Below are positions 1-6,390 of a stretch of DNA of 6,408 nt, piece after piece (the first letter of the stretch is position 1; every line of letters begins with the position of its first letter). The notes under the pieces are model-generated. The model was not told the origin of the DNA and did not search any database. It was given only the letters and a program-made list of their open reading frames with translations. This DNA is from Escherichia phage Copypasta. A program made the translations under genes and the position numbers. The stretch lies in the sequence record OR791786.1, one strand, 5' to 3'.

Positions 1-45
1 AATAGTGGACTCTTGTTCCAAACTGGAACAACACTCACAACTAAC
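1..45 (+). other. Plus-strand replication origin core, downstream part: 3' arm of the nick-site hairpin (gtggactc, 5..12, pairing with gagtccac at 6394..6401) and a second hairpin at 13..31 (ttgttcc / aaact / ggaacaa); pII recognition region
   Basis: Seen in sequence: inverted repeat 6394..6401 / 5..12 spanning the window junction with an 11-nt loop gttctttaata, and a perfect 7-bp stem at 13..19 / 25..31. Established knowledge: the Ff plus-origin consists of two hairpins downstream of the packaging signal and minus-origin, with pII nicking in the loop of the first. Confidence 0.85.
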
Positions 46-153
46 TCGGCCTATTCTTTTGATTTATAAGGATTTTTGTCATTTTCTGCTTACTGGTTAA
101 AAAATAAGCTGATTTAACAAATATTTAACGCGAAATTTAACAAAACATTAACG
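46..153 (+). promoter_or_regulatory. AT-rich region between the origin core and the gene II promoter, corresponding to the Ff replication enhancer (domain B); contains helically phased TTTAAC repeats
   Basis: Seen in sequence: very AT-rich tract; TTTAAC at 113..118, 124..129 and 136..141 and TTAAC at 148..152, spaced about 11-12 bp. Established knowledge: the Ff origin domain B is an AT-rich enhancer bound by IHF. Exact boundaries are approximate. Confidence 0.6.
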
Positions 154-182
154 TTTACAATTTAAATATTTGCTTATACAAT
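154..182 (+). promoter_or_regulatory. Candidate sigma-70 promoter for gene II: -35 TTTACA (154..159), 17-nt spacer, -10 TACAAT (177..182)
   Basis: Seen in sequence: near-consensus hexamers with optimal 17-nt spacing, about 45 nt upstream of the gene II ATG. Established knowledge: the gene II promoter lies in the intergenic region and the gene II mRNA leader is the target of pV translational repression. The transcription start itself is not determinable from sequence. Confidence 0.6.
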
Positions 183-225: not shown

Positions 226-1458
226 ATGATTGACATGCTAGTTTTACGATTACCGTTCATCGATTCTCTTGTTTGCTCCAGACTTTCAGGTAATGACCTG
301 ATAGCCTTTGTAGACCTCTCAAAAATAGCTACCCTCTCCGGCATGAATTTATCAGCTAGAACGGTTGAATATCATATTGACGGTGATTTGACTGTCTCCG
401 GCCTTTCTCACCCGTTTGAATCTTTGCCTACTCATTACTCCGGCATTGCATTTAAAATATATGAGGGTTCTAAAAATTTTTATCCCTGCGTTGAAATTAA
501 GGCTTCACCAGCAAAAGTATTACAGGGTCATAATGTTTTTGGTACAACCGATTTAGCTTTATGCTCTGAGGCTTTATTGCTTAATTTTGCTAACTCTCTG
601 CCTTGCCTGTATGATTTATTGGATGTTAACGCTACTACCATTAGTAGAATTGATGCCACCTTTTCAGCTCGCGCCCCAAATGAAAATATAGCTAAACAGG
701 TTATTGACCATTTGCGAAATGTATCTAATGGTCAAACTAAATCTACTCGTTCGCAGAATTGGGAATCAACTGTTACATGGAATGAAACTTCCAGACACCG
801 TACTTTAGTTGCATATTTAAAACATGTTGAACTACAGCACCAGATTCAGCAATTAAGCTCTAAGCCATCCGCAAAAATGACCTCTTATCAAAAGGAGCAA
901 TTAAAGGTACTGTCTAATCCTGACCTGTTGGAATTTGCTTCCGGTCTGGTTCGCTTTGAGGCTCGAATTAAAACGCGATATTTGAAGTCTTTCGGGCTTC
1001 CTCTTAATCTTTTTGATGCAATTCGCTTTGCTTCTGACTATAATAGACAGGGTAAAGACCTTATTTTTGATTTATGGTCATTCTCGTTTTCTGAACTGTT
1101 TAAAGCATTTGAGGGGGATTCAATGAATATTTATGACGATTCCGCAGTATTGGACGCTATCCAGTCTAAACATTTTACAATTACTCCCTCTGGCAAAACT
1201 TCCTTTGCAAAAGCCTCTCGCTATTTTGGTTTCTATCGTCGTCTGGTTAATGAGGGTTATGATAGTGTTGCTCTTACCATGCCTCGTAATTCCTTTTGGC
1301 GTTATGTATCTGCATTAGTTGAGTGCGGTATTCCTAAATCTCAATTGATGAATCTTTCCACCTGTAATAATGTTGTTCCGTTAGTTCGTTTTATTAACGT
1401 AGATTTTTCCTCCCAACGTCCTGACTGGTATAATGAGCCAGTTCTTAAAATCGCATAA
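226..1458 (+). CDS. II: Gene II protein (pII), replication initiator nickase/endonuclease for rolling-circle replication, 410 aa
   Basis: ORF 226..1458 translates to 410 aa beginning MIDMLVLRLPFIDSLVCSRLSGNDL, matching my recollection of Ff pII in sequence and length; position immediately downstream of the intergenic region. Stop TAA at 1456..1458. Confidence 0.96.
   Translation: MIDMLVLRLPFIDSLVCSRLSGNDLIAFVDLSKIATLSGMNLSARTVEYHIDGDLTVSGLSHPFESLPTHYSGIAFKIYEGSKNFYPCVEIKASPAKVLQGHNVFGTTDLALCSEALLLNFANSLPCLYDLLDVNATTISRIDATFSARAPNENIAKQVIDHLRNVSNGQTKSTRSQNWESTVTWNETSRHRTLVAYLKHVELQHQIQQLSSKPSAKMTSYQKEQLKVLSNPDLLEFASGLVRFEARIKTRYLKSFGLPLNLFDAIRFASDYNRQGKDLIFDLWSFSFSELFKAFEGDSMNIYDDSAVLDAIQSKHFTITPSGKTSFAKASRYFGFYRRLVNEGYDSVALTMPRNSFWRYVSALVECGIPKSQLMNLSTCNNVVPLVRFINVDFSSQRPDWYNEPVLKIA
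1123..1458 (+). CDS. X: Gene X protein (pX), 111 aa, translated from an in-frame internal start within gene II; identical to the C-terminal third of pII
   Basis: Seen in sequence: ATG at 1123 in frame with gene II (codon 300), preceded by a strong Shine-Dalgarno-like gagggggatt (1111..1120); product MNIYDDSAVLDAIQSKHF... is 111 aa. Established knowledge: Ff gene X is an in-frame internal restart of gene II yielding a 111-aa protein. Confidence 0.9.
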   Translation: MNIYDDSAVLDAIQSKHFTITPSGKTSFAKASRYFGFYRRLVNEGYDSVALTMPRNSFWRYVSALVECGIPKSQLMNLSTCNNVVPLVRFINVDFSSQRPDWYNEPVLKIA

Positions 1459-3823: not shown

Positions 3824-4870
3824 ATGGCTGTTTATTTTGTAACTGGCAAATTAGGCTCTGGAAAGACGCTCGTTAGCGTTGGTAAGATTCAGGATAAAAT
3901 TGTAGCTGGGTGCAAAATAGCAACTAATCTTGATTTAAGGCTTCAAAACCTCCCGCAAGTCGGGAGGTTCGCTAAAACGCCTCGCGTTCTTAGAATACCG
4001 GATAAGCCTTCTATTTCTGATTTGCTTGCTATTGGGCGTGGTAATGATTCCTACGACGAAAATAAAAACGGTTTGCTTGTTCTTGATGAATGCGGTACTT
4101 GGTTTAATACCCGTTCATGGAATGACAAGGAAAGACAGCCGATTATTGATTGGTTTCTTCATGCTCGTAAATTGGGATGGGATATTATTTTTCTTGTTCA
4201 GGATTTATCTATTGTTGATAAACAGGCGCGTTCTGCATTAGCTGAACACGTTGTTTATTGTCGCCGTCTGGACAGAATTACTTTACCCTTTGTCGGCACT
4301 TTATATTCTCTTGTTACTGGCTCAAAAATGCCTCTGCCTAAATTACATGTTGGTGTTGTTAAATATGGTGATTCTCAATTAAGCCCTACTGTTGAGCGTT
4401 GGCTTTATACTGGTAAGAATTTATATAACGCATATGACACTAAACAGGCTTTTTCCAGTAATTATGATTCAGGTGTTTATTCATATTTAACCCCTTATTT
4501 ATCACACGGTCGGTATTTCAAACCATTAAATTTAGGTCAGAAGATGAAATTAACTAAAATATATTTGAAAAAGTTTTCTCGCGTTCTTTGTCTTGCGATA
4601 GGATTTGCATCAGCATTTACATATAGTTATATAACCCAACCTAAGCCGGAGGTTAAAAAGGTAGTCTCTCAGACCTATGATTTTGATAAATTCACTATTG
4701 ACTCTTCTCAGCGTCTTAATCTAAGCTATCGCTATGTTTTCAAGGATTCTAAGGGAAAATTAATTAATAGCGACGATTTACAGAAGCAAGGTTATTCCAT
4801 CACATATATTGATTTATGTACTGTTTCAATTAAAAAAGGTAATTCAAATGAAATTGTTAAATGTAATTAA
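3824..4870 (+). CDS. I: Gene I protein (pI), inner-membrane assembly ATPase, 348 aa, with Walker A motif GKLGSGKT near the N-terminus
   Basis: ORF 3824..4870, 348 aa, MAVYFVTGKLGSGKTLVSVGKIQDKIVAGCKIATNLDLRL...; P-loop motif GSGKT seen in the translation; starts 2 nt after the gene VI stop. Confidence 0.96.
   Translation: MAVYFVTGKLGSGKTLVSVGKIQDKIVAGCKIATNLDLRLQNLPQVGRFAKTPRVLRIPDKPSISDLLAIGRGNDSYDENKNGLLVLDECGTWFNTRSWNDKERQPIIDWFLHARKLGWDIIFLVQDLSIVDKQARSALAEHVVYCRRLDRITLPFVGTLYSLVTGSKMPLPKLHVGVVKYGDSQLSPTVERWLYTGKNLYNAYDTKQAFSSNYDSGVYSYLTPYLSHGRYFKPLNLGQKMKLTKIYLKKFSRVLCLAIGFASAFTYSYITQPKPEVKKVVSQTYDFDKFTIDSSQRLNLSYRYVFKDSKGKLINSDDLQKQGYSITYIDLCTVSIKKGNSNEIVKCN
3947..3969 (+). other. Perfect 9-bp inverted repeat with 5-nt loop (aacctcccg / caagt / cgggaggtt) inside the gene I coding sequence
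   Basis: Seen in sequence at 3947..3955 and 3961..3969; encodes QNLPQVGRF. Function is not determinable from sequence; candidates are an mRNA structural or processing element or part of the rho-dependent termination region reported within Ff gene I. Confidence 0.5.
4544..4870 (+). CDS. XI: Gene XI protein (pXI), 108 aa, in-frame internal translation start within gene I (Met241 of pI); membrane assembly protein
   Basis: Seen in sequence: ATG at 4544 in frame with gene I (codon 241), product MKLTKIYLKKFSRVLCLAIGFASAFTYSYI... is 108 aa with a hydrophobic segment. Established knowledge: Ff gene XI is an internal in-frame restart of gene I giving a 108-aa protein. Confidence 0.85.
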   Translation: MKLTKIYLKKFSRVLCLAIGFASAFTYSYITQPKPEVKKVVSQTYDFDKFTIDSSQRLNLSYRYVFKDSKGKLINSDDLQKQGYSITYIDLCTVSIKKGNSNEIVKCN

Positions 4871-6128
4871 TTTTGTTTTCTTGATGTTTGTTTCATCATC
4901 TTCTTTTGCTCAAGTAATTGAAATGAATAATTCGCCTCTGCGCGATTTCGTTACTTGGTATTCAAAGCAAACAGGTGAATCTGTTATTGTCTCACCTGAT
5001 GTTAAAGGTACTGTGACTGTATATTCCTCTGACGTTAAGCCTGAAAATTTACGCAATTTCTTTATCTCTGTTTTACGTGCTAATAATTTTGATATGGTTG
5101 GCTCTAATCCTTCCATAATTCAGAAATATAACCCAAATAGTCAGGATTATATTGATGAATTGCCATCATCTGATATTCAGGAATATGATGATAATTCCGC
5201 TCCTTCTGGTGGTTTCTTTGTTCCGCAAAATGATAATGTTACTCAAACATTTAAAATTAATAACGTTCGCGCAAAGGATTTAATAAGGGTTGTAGAATTG
5301 TTTGTTAAATCTAATACATCTAAATCCTCAAATGTATTATCTGTTGATGGTTCTAACTTATTAGTAGTTAGCGCCCCTAAAGATATTTTAGATAACCTTC
5401 CGCAATTTCTTTCGACTGTTGATTTGCCAACTGACCAGATATTGATTGAAGGATTAATTTTCGAGGTTCAGCAAGGTGATGCTTTAGATTTTTCCTTTGC
5501 TGCTGGCTCTCAGCGCGGCACTGTTGCTGGTGGTGTTAATACTGACCGCCTCACCTCTGTTTTATCTTCTGCGGGTGGCTCGTTCGGTATTTTTAACGGC
5601 GATGTTTTAGGGCTATCAGTTCGCGCATTAAAGACTAATAGCCATTCAAAAATATTGTCTGTGCCTCGTATTCTTACGCTTTCAGGTCAGAAGGGTTCTA
5701 TTTCTGTTGGCCAGAATGTCCCTTTTATTACTGGTCGTGTAACTGGTGAATCTGCCAATGTAAATAATCCATTTCAGACAATTGAGCGTCAAAATGTTGG
5801 TATTTCTATGAGTGTTTTTCCGGTTGCAATGGCTGGCGGTAATATTGTTCTGGATATTACTAGCAAGGCCGATAGTTTGAGTTCTTCTACTCAGGCAAGT
5901 GATGTTATTACTAATCAAAGAAGTATTGCGACAACGGTTAATTTGCGTGATGGACAGACTCTTTTACTCGGTGGCCTCACTGATTATAAAAACACTTCTC
6001 AGGATTCTGGCGTACCGTTCCTGTCTAAAATCCCTTTAATCGGCCTCCTGTTTAGCTCCCGCTCTGATTCTAACGAGGAAAGCACGTTATACGTGCTCGT
6101 CAAAGCAACCATAGTACGCGCCCTGTAG
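4848..6128 (+). CDS. IV: Gene IV protein (pIV), outer-membrane secretin for phage export, 426-aa precursor with a 21-aa signal peptide
   Basis: ATG at 4848 preceded by SD-like aaggt (4836..4840); translation MKLLNVINFVFLMFVSSSSFA / QVIEMNNSPLRDFVTWYSKQ..., ending ...YVLVKATIVRAL; overlaps the 3' end of gene I by 23 nt in a different frame. The ORF track's upstream ATG at 4809 would add 13 residues in front of the signal peptide and is not the start. Confidence 0.95.
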   Translation: MKLLNVINFVFLMFVSSSSFAQVIEMNNSPLRDFVTWYSKQTGESVIVSPDVKGTVTVYSSDVKPENLRNFFISVLRANNFDMVGSNPSIIQKYNPNSQDYIDELPSSDIQEYDDNSAPSGGFFVPQNDNVTQTFKINNVRAKDLIRVVELFVKSNTSKSSNVLSVDGSNLLVVSAPKDILDNLPQFLSTVDLPTDQILIEGLIFEVQQGDALDFSFAAGSQRGTVAGGVNTDRLTSVLSSAGGSFGIFNGDVLGLSVRALKTNSHSKILSVPRILTLSGQKGSISVGQNVPFITGRVTGESANVNNPFQTIERQNVGISMSVFPVAMAGGNIVLDITSKADSLSSSTQASDVITNQRSIATTVNLRDGQTLLLGGLTDYKNTSQDSGVPFLSKIPLIGLLFSSRSDSNEESTLYVLVKATIVRAL

Positions 6129-6206: not shown

Positions 6207-6390
6207 TTTCGCTTTCTTCCCTTCCTTTCTCGCCACGTTTGCCGGCTTTCCCCGTCAAGCTCTAAATCGGGGGCTCCCTTTAGGGTTCCGATTTAGTGCT
6301 TTACGGCACCTCGACCCCAAAAAACTTGATTTGGGTGATGGTTCACGTAGTGGGCCATCGCCCTGATAGACGGTTTTTCGCTCTTTGCCG
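6207..6390 (+). other. Minus-strand (complementary-strand) origin region: hairpins recognised by host RNA polymerase to make the RNA primer on the viral single strand
   Basis: Seen in sequence: multiple inverted repeats, for example ccccgtcaagctctaaatcgggg (stem ccccg/cgggg) and gggccatcgccc. Established knowledge: the Ff minus-origin lies between the packaging signal and the plus-origin. Boundaries are approximate. Confidence 0.65.

Follow-up and report, generated by a model that had tools for sequence, protein, structure and literature searches.

Introduction

The replication origin of the filamentous phage f1 comprises domain A, the core plus-strand origin (f1 5769-5819), and domain B, the replication enhancer, delimited by genetics (5820 to about 5910), in the account given by PMC5405960, which cites Dotto et al. 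and Greenstein et al. (1988). The same secondary account, again after Greenstein et al. (1988), describes a strong region protected in vitro by integration host factor (IHF) at f1 5825-5857 and a second, weaker one at 5886-5942, and gives the yield of f1 in IHF-deficient hosts as about 3% of normal. Here we describe the corresponding DNA of Escherichia phage Copypasta (OR791786.1), of which the whole 6,408-nt record was analysed and is referred to as the window. The subject is an array of four short TTAAC repeats lying between the plus-strand origin and the promoter of gene II, the replication initiator gene.

A second group of described systems involves ArcA, the response regulator of the ArcAB redox system. 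Its phosphorylated form (ArcA-P) recognises direct repeats of the TGTTAA type at a spacing of 11 bp, and most of the sites occupied in vivo hold three to five of them (Park et al. 2013, PMC3798270). In multi-repeat sites the additional copies follow on the same strand at 11, 12 or 22 bp. Most ArcA sites in E. coli overlap promoter elements and repress, whereas activating sites vary in position. In plasmid R1 ArcA-P footprints the sequence TGTTAAGTAAATGTTAA at -76 to -60 of the PY promoter and is required for activation of the tra genes (PMC7303359), and ArcA thus controls the genes of the F-type pilus.

The TTAAC array

On the + strand of the window TTTAAC is found at 113-118, 124-129 and 136-141, and TTAAC, within ATTAAC, at 148-152. 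A motif search confirmed these four positions as given in the initial annotation of the sequence. The start-to-start distances of the TTAAC pentamers are 11, 12 and 11 bp (mean 11.3), so that a spacing of "roughly one helical turn" holds as an approximation: on a helix of 10.5 bp per turn, repeats 1 and 4 are offset by about 86 degrees, and the four copies share one phase if the turn takes 11.3 bp. The hexamer TTTAAC is not notably over-represented in the genome (13 observed against 7.4 expected, a count reached by 10 of 200 shuffles); what is unusual is the phased chain rather than the abundance of the hexamer. A chain of four identical 5-mers spaced 10-12 bp is unique in the 6408-nt genome, and a comparable one arose in 3 of 2000 dinucleotide shuffles of the whole genome and, when the AT-rich surroundings alone were shuffled, in 4-9 of 20000 trials (about 3e-4 locally). 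The repeat array is confirmed as real and non-random. A repeat search also returned it (family D1) as a 23-bp direct repeat with two copies that are 84% identical; Tandem Repeats Finder did not report it, the units being too short and too diverged. The surrounding region is among the most AT-rich of the genome, 80-nt segments with a GC content of ≤20% occurring solely near 90-103 and 4791-4820.

The best sigma-70-like site within positions 1-400 consists of TTTACA at 154-159 and TACAAT at 177-182, separated by a 17-nt spacer (10 of 12 matches), and the array is located on the 3' side of the plus-strand nick, immediately before this -35 hexamer of gene II, as first proposed. Since the T5 run at 190-194 is described as lying near the 5' end of the gene II untranslated region (UTR), transcription would start near 189, which would place the array at about -76 to -37.

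The alignment used to assess conservation contains eight Ff sequences from three lineages (fd/FfLilac; f1/M13/FfViolet; FfLavender), the last of which shows only 84% identity in the array region. Throughout these lineages all 23 motif positions are invariant and there are no indels between the motifs. Twelve of the 43 positions in 105-147 vary (106, 108, 110, 111, 120, 122, 130, 133-135, 146 and 147) and none of them falls within a motif; under random placement the probability of this is about 3e-4, the number of independent lineages being small. The same array is present in a Lavender-like metagenomic contig (L081).

These data bear on a further explanation of the array, that a 23-bp tandem duplication in fast-evolving intergenic DNA left it behind as a neutral relic. 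The 84% identity of the two copies is what such a relic would show, and the surrounding intergenic DNA does diverge fast, with 35 of 80 positions varying in 31-110. A duplication leaves unexplained, however, why each unit contains two TTAACs 11 bp apart; the motif positions have stayed constant while 12 of their neighbours varied, and the spacing has been kept without indels in every lineage. We regard a neutral origin as very improbable.

Scanning of metagenome contigs with a 17-mer gave 91 loci, made up of one natural Ff relative (L081), five cloning-vector fragments and, for the rest, chance matches. A search for gene II relatives among viral contigs returned fd itself and one IKe-like contig, and nothing more. 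Records labelled lambda, Escherichia phage ECO95 and Listeria phage LM 4-14-1 (H33-H35) match positions 1-163 of the window alone, the match ending at TTTAAA (161-166), a DraI site. Five metagenome contigs (L022, L024, L027, L107 and L111) carry the M13 intergenic region through GGGGTA, just before the gene II start codon, joined to another gene that is presumably beta-lactamase. Both these contigs and H33-H35 look like the f1 origins of cloning vectors and not like natural phage.

A perfect 11-nt inverted repeat, CAAATATTTAA at 118-128 and TTAAATATTTG at 162-172, brackets the -35 hexamer. It is perfect solely in the fd lineage and degraded in f1 and FfLavender; its right arm forms part of a further IHF-like core in the promoter spacer, at 163-175(-). 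Single-stranded DNA structure was considered and rejected, the fold of 90-185 being no better than those of shuffled sequences (z = -1.6) and the underlying inverted repeat being perfect in fd only.

Integration host factor

The reported weaker IHF-protected region covers 110-153, as far as the account in PMC5405960 goes. The feature is, in this respect, already known: the array as first noted is a rediscovery of the documented IHF-protected distal part of the Ff origin enhancer, a segment flanked by the enhancer on one side and the gene II promoter on the other. We scanned the genome with the IHF consensus WATCAANNNNTTR rather than with a curated weight matrix, allowing ≤1 mismatch and using shuffles as controls. 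Four of the 15 matches in the genome lie within 52-175, namely 52-64(-) in the strong footprint, 115-127(+) and 138-150(+) in the weak one, and 163-175(-). In local shuffles four matches in 40-180 had a probability of 0.007 and two in 106-162 one of 0.027. The IHF link made in the initial annotation is thus supported by the reported footprint, and each pair of repeats lies one mismatch from the consensus.

Each pair of repeats makes up one IHF core, the first TTAAC providing the WATCAA half (as TAACAA) and the next one the TTR. Because a core is built from two TTAACs the 11-bp offset within a pair is accounted for, and the 23-bp duplication accounts for the existence of two pairs. In a subset of IHF sites, for example lambda H', an A/T-rich tract lies 5' of the core. 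An invariant A6 tract is located at 99-104, 10 bp 5' of the first core; this is supportive at most, the whole region being AT-rich.

On balance we consider it probable that a binding platform for host proteins, situated between the enhancer's distal end and the gene II promoter, has these repeats as its conserved recognition core. Bending of this AT-rich and TpA-rich DNA by bound protein would help to organise the nucleoprotein complex of origin and enhancer, static curvature of the sequence presumably not being the main agent. The direct contact of the array with the gene II promoter favours such a platform, as do the invariance of motifs and spacing across the Ff lineages, the presence of the array in L081 and the propagation-enhancing loss of G153 that arose spontaneously in M13KE, and since the array ends at the -35 hexamer, protein-induced bending could affect gene II transcription as well.

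Among the closest described systems are the IHF sites of the f1 enhancer (Greenstein, Zinder and Horiuchi 1988, as reported in PMC5405960), which belong to the same phage group, occupy the same coordinates as the array and have cores one mismatch from the consensus. The strong site, with its core at 52-64(-), lacks the TTAAC grammar that marks the weak region. The weak region is half outside domain B, abuts the -35 hexamer of gene II and is conserved at more positions than the IHF consensus specifies.

Several points weigh against the array being simply such a platform. The IHF footprint coordinates derive from a secondary source (PMC5405960). Both IHF-like cores deviate from the consensus in the same manner (TAACAA, not TATCAA), and no lineage lacks this deviation. 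Nine invariant motif positions (113, 114, 124, 128, 129, 136, 137, 151 and 152) fall outside what the IHF consensus specifies, and by hand count 11 of 22 unconstrained neighbouring positions vary. M13KE revertants that have lost f1 5869-5901, and with it repeat 1 and half of the first core, propagate like wild type, although in a background with the gene II mutation M40I, which lessens the need for domain B. The initial annotation had assigned the array to the enhancer; this applies to repeats 1 and 2 (110-130), domain B extending in the window from 40 to about 130, and not to repeats 3 and 4 (136-152), which lie outside it in the DNA upstream of the promoter. Lastly, phased TTAAC was not seen in the IKe-lineage sequences examined (IKe, PEar4, PEar6 and the IMG/VR contig L013, with 64% gene II identity), so that every Ff lineage available keeps the phasing, whereas the IKe lineage does not have it. 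That the array is written in identical pentamers suggests that IHF is not its sole ligand and possibly not the main one under selection.

In the strong IHF region the core segment 54-71, TTTATAAGG, is nearly invariant in Ff phages. A similar block, TGTTTTATAAG(A/G)TAATT(T/C)AT, lies about as far from the nick in IKe, PEar4 and the IMG/VR relative (L002 550-575, L013 968-995); none of these versions comes within ≤1 mismatch of the IHF consensus.

ArcA

Read on the bottom strand the array is CGTTAAT, TGTTAAA, CGTTAAA and TGTTAAA, that is, four GTTAA direct repeats at distances of 11, 12 and 11 bp. The initial annotation had proposed phased sites for an architectural protein; the IHF footprint agrees with this, while four identical pentamers on one strand would suit a dimer that binds direct repeats, and ArcA had not been considered. 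It is quite possible, if not quite probable, that the array is a four-direct-repeat site for ArcA-P, either instead of the IHF site or alongside it. Two ArcA-P dimers would then sit on the GTTAA repeats of the bottom strand, covering the gene II promoter from about -75 to -35, and their binding would couple gene II transcription, or the access of IHF to the enhancer, to the oxygen or redox state of the cell. A site abutting the -35 hexamer suggests occlusion, whereas the ArcA site at -76 to -60 of PY co-activates, so that the effect on gene II could go either way.

An 18-bp position weight matrix (PWM) for ArcA was built from 115 of the 128 boxes found by chromatin immunoprecipitation sequencing (ChIP-seq), those readable in Table S3 of Park et al. 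(2013), and its scores agreed with the published ones (r=0.994). A 10-bp matrix for single repeats was recovered from Table S4 of the same paper with a maximum residual of 0.38 bit. The array contains two ArcA-box-like 18-mers (Table 1), both of which score above the lowest in vivo box (9.1 bits; mean about 15), whereas the third-best box in the phage genome attains 10.2 bits, as against 17.2 and 17.9. In local shuffles one box of ≥17 bits arose with a probability of 0.012-0.025 and two with one of 2-4.5e-4. Nor is the PWM promiscuous in AT-rich DNA, no match of ≥12 bits being found in the If1 genome or in the D_HF5_61 region with its 30% GC.

The single repeats, which share one strand, score 7.1, 11.6, 7.4 and 10.4 bits (DR1 to DR4). 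Their sum, 36.5, exceeds that of all 22 four-repeat sites of E. coli (maximum 33.4 for yejG, median 21.2) and was matched in 1 of 10000 local shuffles (P=1e-4); the value of the weakest repeat was matched in 0 of 10000. The 10-mer of DR2 is identical to DR1 of oppA1, published at 11.63 bits, and the 11/12/11 spacing is shared with yejG and fumA, both bound in vivo. In f1/M13 the proximal box reaches 19.3 bits and the distal one 15.8; for FfLavender the values are 19.0 and 13.3 bits.

Features of the array that the IHF consensus does not explain also point to a direct-repeat binder. Six of the nine invariant positions left over by IHF are high-information positions of the ArcA model. The invariant AC following TTA (128-129 and 151-152), unspecified by IHF, corresponds to the conserved G-T of the ArcA repeat. 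The A that constitutes the IHF mismatch is itself invariant in both cores. Four identical pentamers on the same strand are the grammar of a dimer of the OmpR/PhoB type, whereas an IHF site needs two different half-elements.

On the other side, the case for ArcA is computational, and IHF alone has reported binding. The fall of the distal box in FfLavender, noted above, is a further weakness, as is the absence of the array from If1 in addition to the IKe-lineage sequences examined. The two boxes are not independent events, since the array is also a 23-bp duplication. Moreover, although only 7% of real ArcA boxes match the IHF consensus within ≤1 mismatch, a box whose two GTTAA cores are both perfect needs just a T at box position 12 to do so and hence nearly always reads as a one-mismatch IHF site; the two models are thus confounded at the level of sequence. 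We know of no ArcA dependence of Ff replication apart from that caused by loss of the F pilus, which again speaks against ArcA. Upstream of the gene II homologues of IKe, PEar4, PEar6, L013, If1, D_HF5_61 and Dulem viruses 52 and 57 the ArcA boxes followed no common pattern.

Among described ArcA sites, the R1 PY site (PMC7303359) resembles the Ff array in that TGTTAA direct repeats, spaced 11 bp, precede a promoter in an AT-rich setting; the distal Ff box extends over about -75 to -58, close to the interval occupied by the PY site, and both are part of the F-pilus/Ff system. The PY site has two repeats on the non-template strand and co-activates, acting with TraJ against H-NS, whereas the Ff site is a predicted one with four repeats on the template strand that reach the -35 hexamer. 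Like the Ff array, the E. coli sites at yejG, fumA and astC have four repeats on the same strand (Park et al. 2013, Table S4), and at astC ArcA-P footprints about 44 bp, close to the length of the array (111-154). The Ff repeats are individually stronger than those of the E. coli four-repeat sites, even the weakest scoring 7.1 bits, and they are found on a phage replicon beside a rolling-circle origin, unlike yejG, fumA and astC.

We tentatively put forward the idea that a near-optimal four-repeat ArcA-P operator, at about -75 to -35 and overlapping the weak IHF region, wires Ff replication and gene II expression to the ArcAB redox signal. As far as the literature was searched, no link between ArcA and Ff gene II was found and the proposal is new. 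If correct, its added value over the known IHF site would be an oxygen or redox input that has gone unrecognised in a heavily studied phage regulatory region. It could also explain why TTAAC is strictly conserved in nature even though partial deletion is cost-free in aerobic laboratory propagation: a role needed mainly at high ArcA-P, that is at low oxygen, would fit both the conservation seen in nature and the ability of M13KE revertants to propagate without f1 5869-5901. The F pilus is the receptor of the Ff phages, and arcA was also isolated as sfrA and fexA. Replication of the phage would in that case be tied to the regulator of its own receptor, ArcA being needed by F-like plasmids for the tra (pilus) genes. 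High-copy plasmids with an f1 origin could titrate ArcA-P, and since the array lies within the f1-origin fragment of the vector-derived records, whose match ends at 163, common phagemids may likewise carry a strong ArcA-P site.

Three other regulators were considered and rejected. For Fis, judged by eye, GAAATTTAACAAAAC has a G and a C 15 bp apart but is without the preferred bases at -3/+3; the repeats of PhoP (TGTTTA) and CpxR (GTAAA) are one base per half-site off GTTAA. All three are a worse fit than ArcA.

Some additional observations concern ArcA-like sequences. A further ArcA-repeat-like 10-mer, TGGTTAAAAA (9.9 bits), is located at 94-103(+) in an orientation opposite to that of the array, and is not conserved in FfLavender. 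Deletion of G153 (M13KE G6748del, f1/M13 5933) has been reported as a spontaneous mutation that enhances propagation; this base sits between repeat 4 and the -35 hexamer, and its loss would shift the whole array 1 bp nearer to the latter and turn the proximal ArcA-like repeat ACGTTAAT into AAGTTAAT. Dulem virus 57 (PP511699.1 3282-3299; L114 383-400), from a lemur saliva sample, possesses a 23.4-bit ArcA box, TTGTTAATTAAATGTTAC, about 365 bp upstream of its gene II homologue and adjoining a small divergent open reading frame.

Curvature and UP elements

The initial annotation also offered intrinsically bent DNA as an explanation. In this case the phased repeats and their A/T-tract spacers would act as a curved or UP-element-like sequence, stimulating the gene II promoter or the enhancer without a dedicated protein. 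Curvature was predicted with three dinucleotide wedge models, for which A4T4-bent, T4A4-straight and kinetoplast control sequences behaved correctly; the wedge parameters used limit the weight of the result. The predicted bend (Table 1) is moderate in the window and larger in f1 and FfLavender, and to this extent intrinsic bending has some support. Like phased A-tract DNA and UP elements, the array is AT-rich (indeed among the most AT-rich parts of the genome), roughly helically phased and positioned at -40 to -75 of a sigma-70 promoter. The segment 142-150, AAAACATTA, at about -47 to -39, matches by eye 6 of the 8 positions specified by AAAAAARNR, the consensus for the proximal UP subsite reported by Estrem et al.

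The repeat unit differs from phased A-tracts, which are runs of ≥4 A or T lacking a TpA step, in that TTTAAC contains such a step and is no A-tract, and the spacer tracts are short and variable between lineages. Predicted curvature varies about two-fold from lineage to lineage while the TTAAC cores are invariant, and the substitutions are located in the A/T-tract spacers, where selection on curvature would be expected to prevent them. The strongest local bend is predicted elsewhere, near 194. Curvature or UP activity without a dedicated protein thus appears an unlikely basis for the array, and static bending would be at best a secondary property.

The predicted bend near 194 spans 185-205 and coincides with the T5/T4 runs of the gene II 5' UTR, the region of the gene V protein operator. 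Each of the four wedge models ranks it among the top 1% of the genome.

Genome and origin layout

The window is the complete, rotated genome of a filamentous phage of the fd lineage. Its closest record is FfIris, with 99.7% identity, followed by fd J02451 with 99.2% (over 6408 nt), in agreement with the Ff identity first proposed. Positions 1-260 are identical to fd 5782-6041, and as the fd record annotates the origin of viral-strand synthesis (rep_origin) at 5782, base 1 of the window is the first base 3' of the nick made by the gene II protein. Position x of the window corresponds to fd 5781+x and to f1/M13 5780+x. The M13KE deletion G6748del provides a cross-check: it is wild-type 5933, which converts to position 153, and base 153 is a G. 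The features of the region are collected in Table 1.

Table 1. Coordinates of features in and around the TTAAC array of phage Copypasta (positions are those of the window)
Feature	Position	Strand	Remarks
Core plus-strand origin (domain A), 3' part	1..39	+	limits f1 5769-5819
Reported strong IHF-protected region, f1 5825-5857	45..77		IHF-like core AATCAAAAGAATA at 52-64 (-); from the account in PMC5405960
Reported weaker IHF-protected region, f1 5886-5942	106..162		PMC5405960, citing Greenstein et al. 1988
23-bp direct repeat, two copies	112-130 ATTTAACAAATATTTAACG; 135-153 ATTTAACAAAACATTAACG	+	84% identity
TTTAAC repeat 1; bottom-strand DR4 TTGTTAAATC (120->111), GTTAA core	113..118	+	invariant in 8 Ff sequences; 10.4 bits
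TTTAAC repeat 2; bottom-strand DR3 GCGTTAAATA (131->122)	124..129	+	invariant; 7.4 bits
TTTAAC repeat 3; bottom-strand DR2 TTGTTAAATT (143->134)	136..141	+	invariant; 11.6 bits
TTAAC repeat 4; bottom-strand DR1 ACGTTAATGT (154->145), abuts -35 hexamer	148..152	+	invariant; 7.1 bits
IHF-like core 1 TAACAAATATTTA	115..127	+	one mismatch to WATCAANNNNTTR, at T of WATCAA
IHF-like core 2 TAACAAAACATTA	138..150	+	single mismatch identical to that of core 1
Distal ArcA-box-like 18-mer GCGTTAAATATTTGTTAA	114..131	-	17.2 bits, above 70% of 115 ChIP-seq boxes
Promoter-proximal ArcA-box-like 18-mer ACGTTAATGTTTTGTTAA	137..154	-	17.9 bits, above 76% of ChIP-seq boxes; overlaps first -35 base
Peak predicted curvature, window	110-153		17-20 degrees per 30 bp, 91st-97th percentile of genome
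Peak predicted curvature, f1	110-153		21-23 degrees per 30 bp, not ranked
Peak predicted curvature, FfLavender	110-153		27-30 degrees per 30 bp, not ranked
Gene II promoter: -35 TTTACA 154-159, -10 TACAAT 177-182	154..182	+	invariant in Ff except position 164
Gene II, replication initiator	226..1458	+	410 aa + stop, ATG at 226

In the Erwinia phage PEar4 (L006 400-525; MT901799.1, about 6400-6525) the origin region seems permuted in comparison with IKe. The sequence 3' of the nick (TAATAGTGGACTC...) occurs about 100 nt ahead of the 5' arm GAGTCCACTATGTTT, and the arm continues directly into downstream sequence; possible causes are duplication, rearrangement and an artefact of assembly.

Compared with fd J02451 the window has 54 differences, 53 of which also differ from the fd copy in IMG/VR, while 6382 differs from J02451 alone. 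Two of the changes, C>T at 6382 and A>C at 6388, are situated 20-27 nt 5' of the nick (cgCTCtttGCCg versus cgCCCtttGACg), and all the fd, M13-vector and Lavender-like sequences inspected over that stretch carry the other form.

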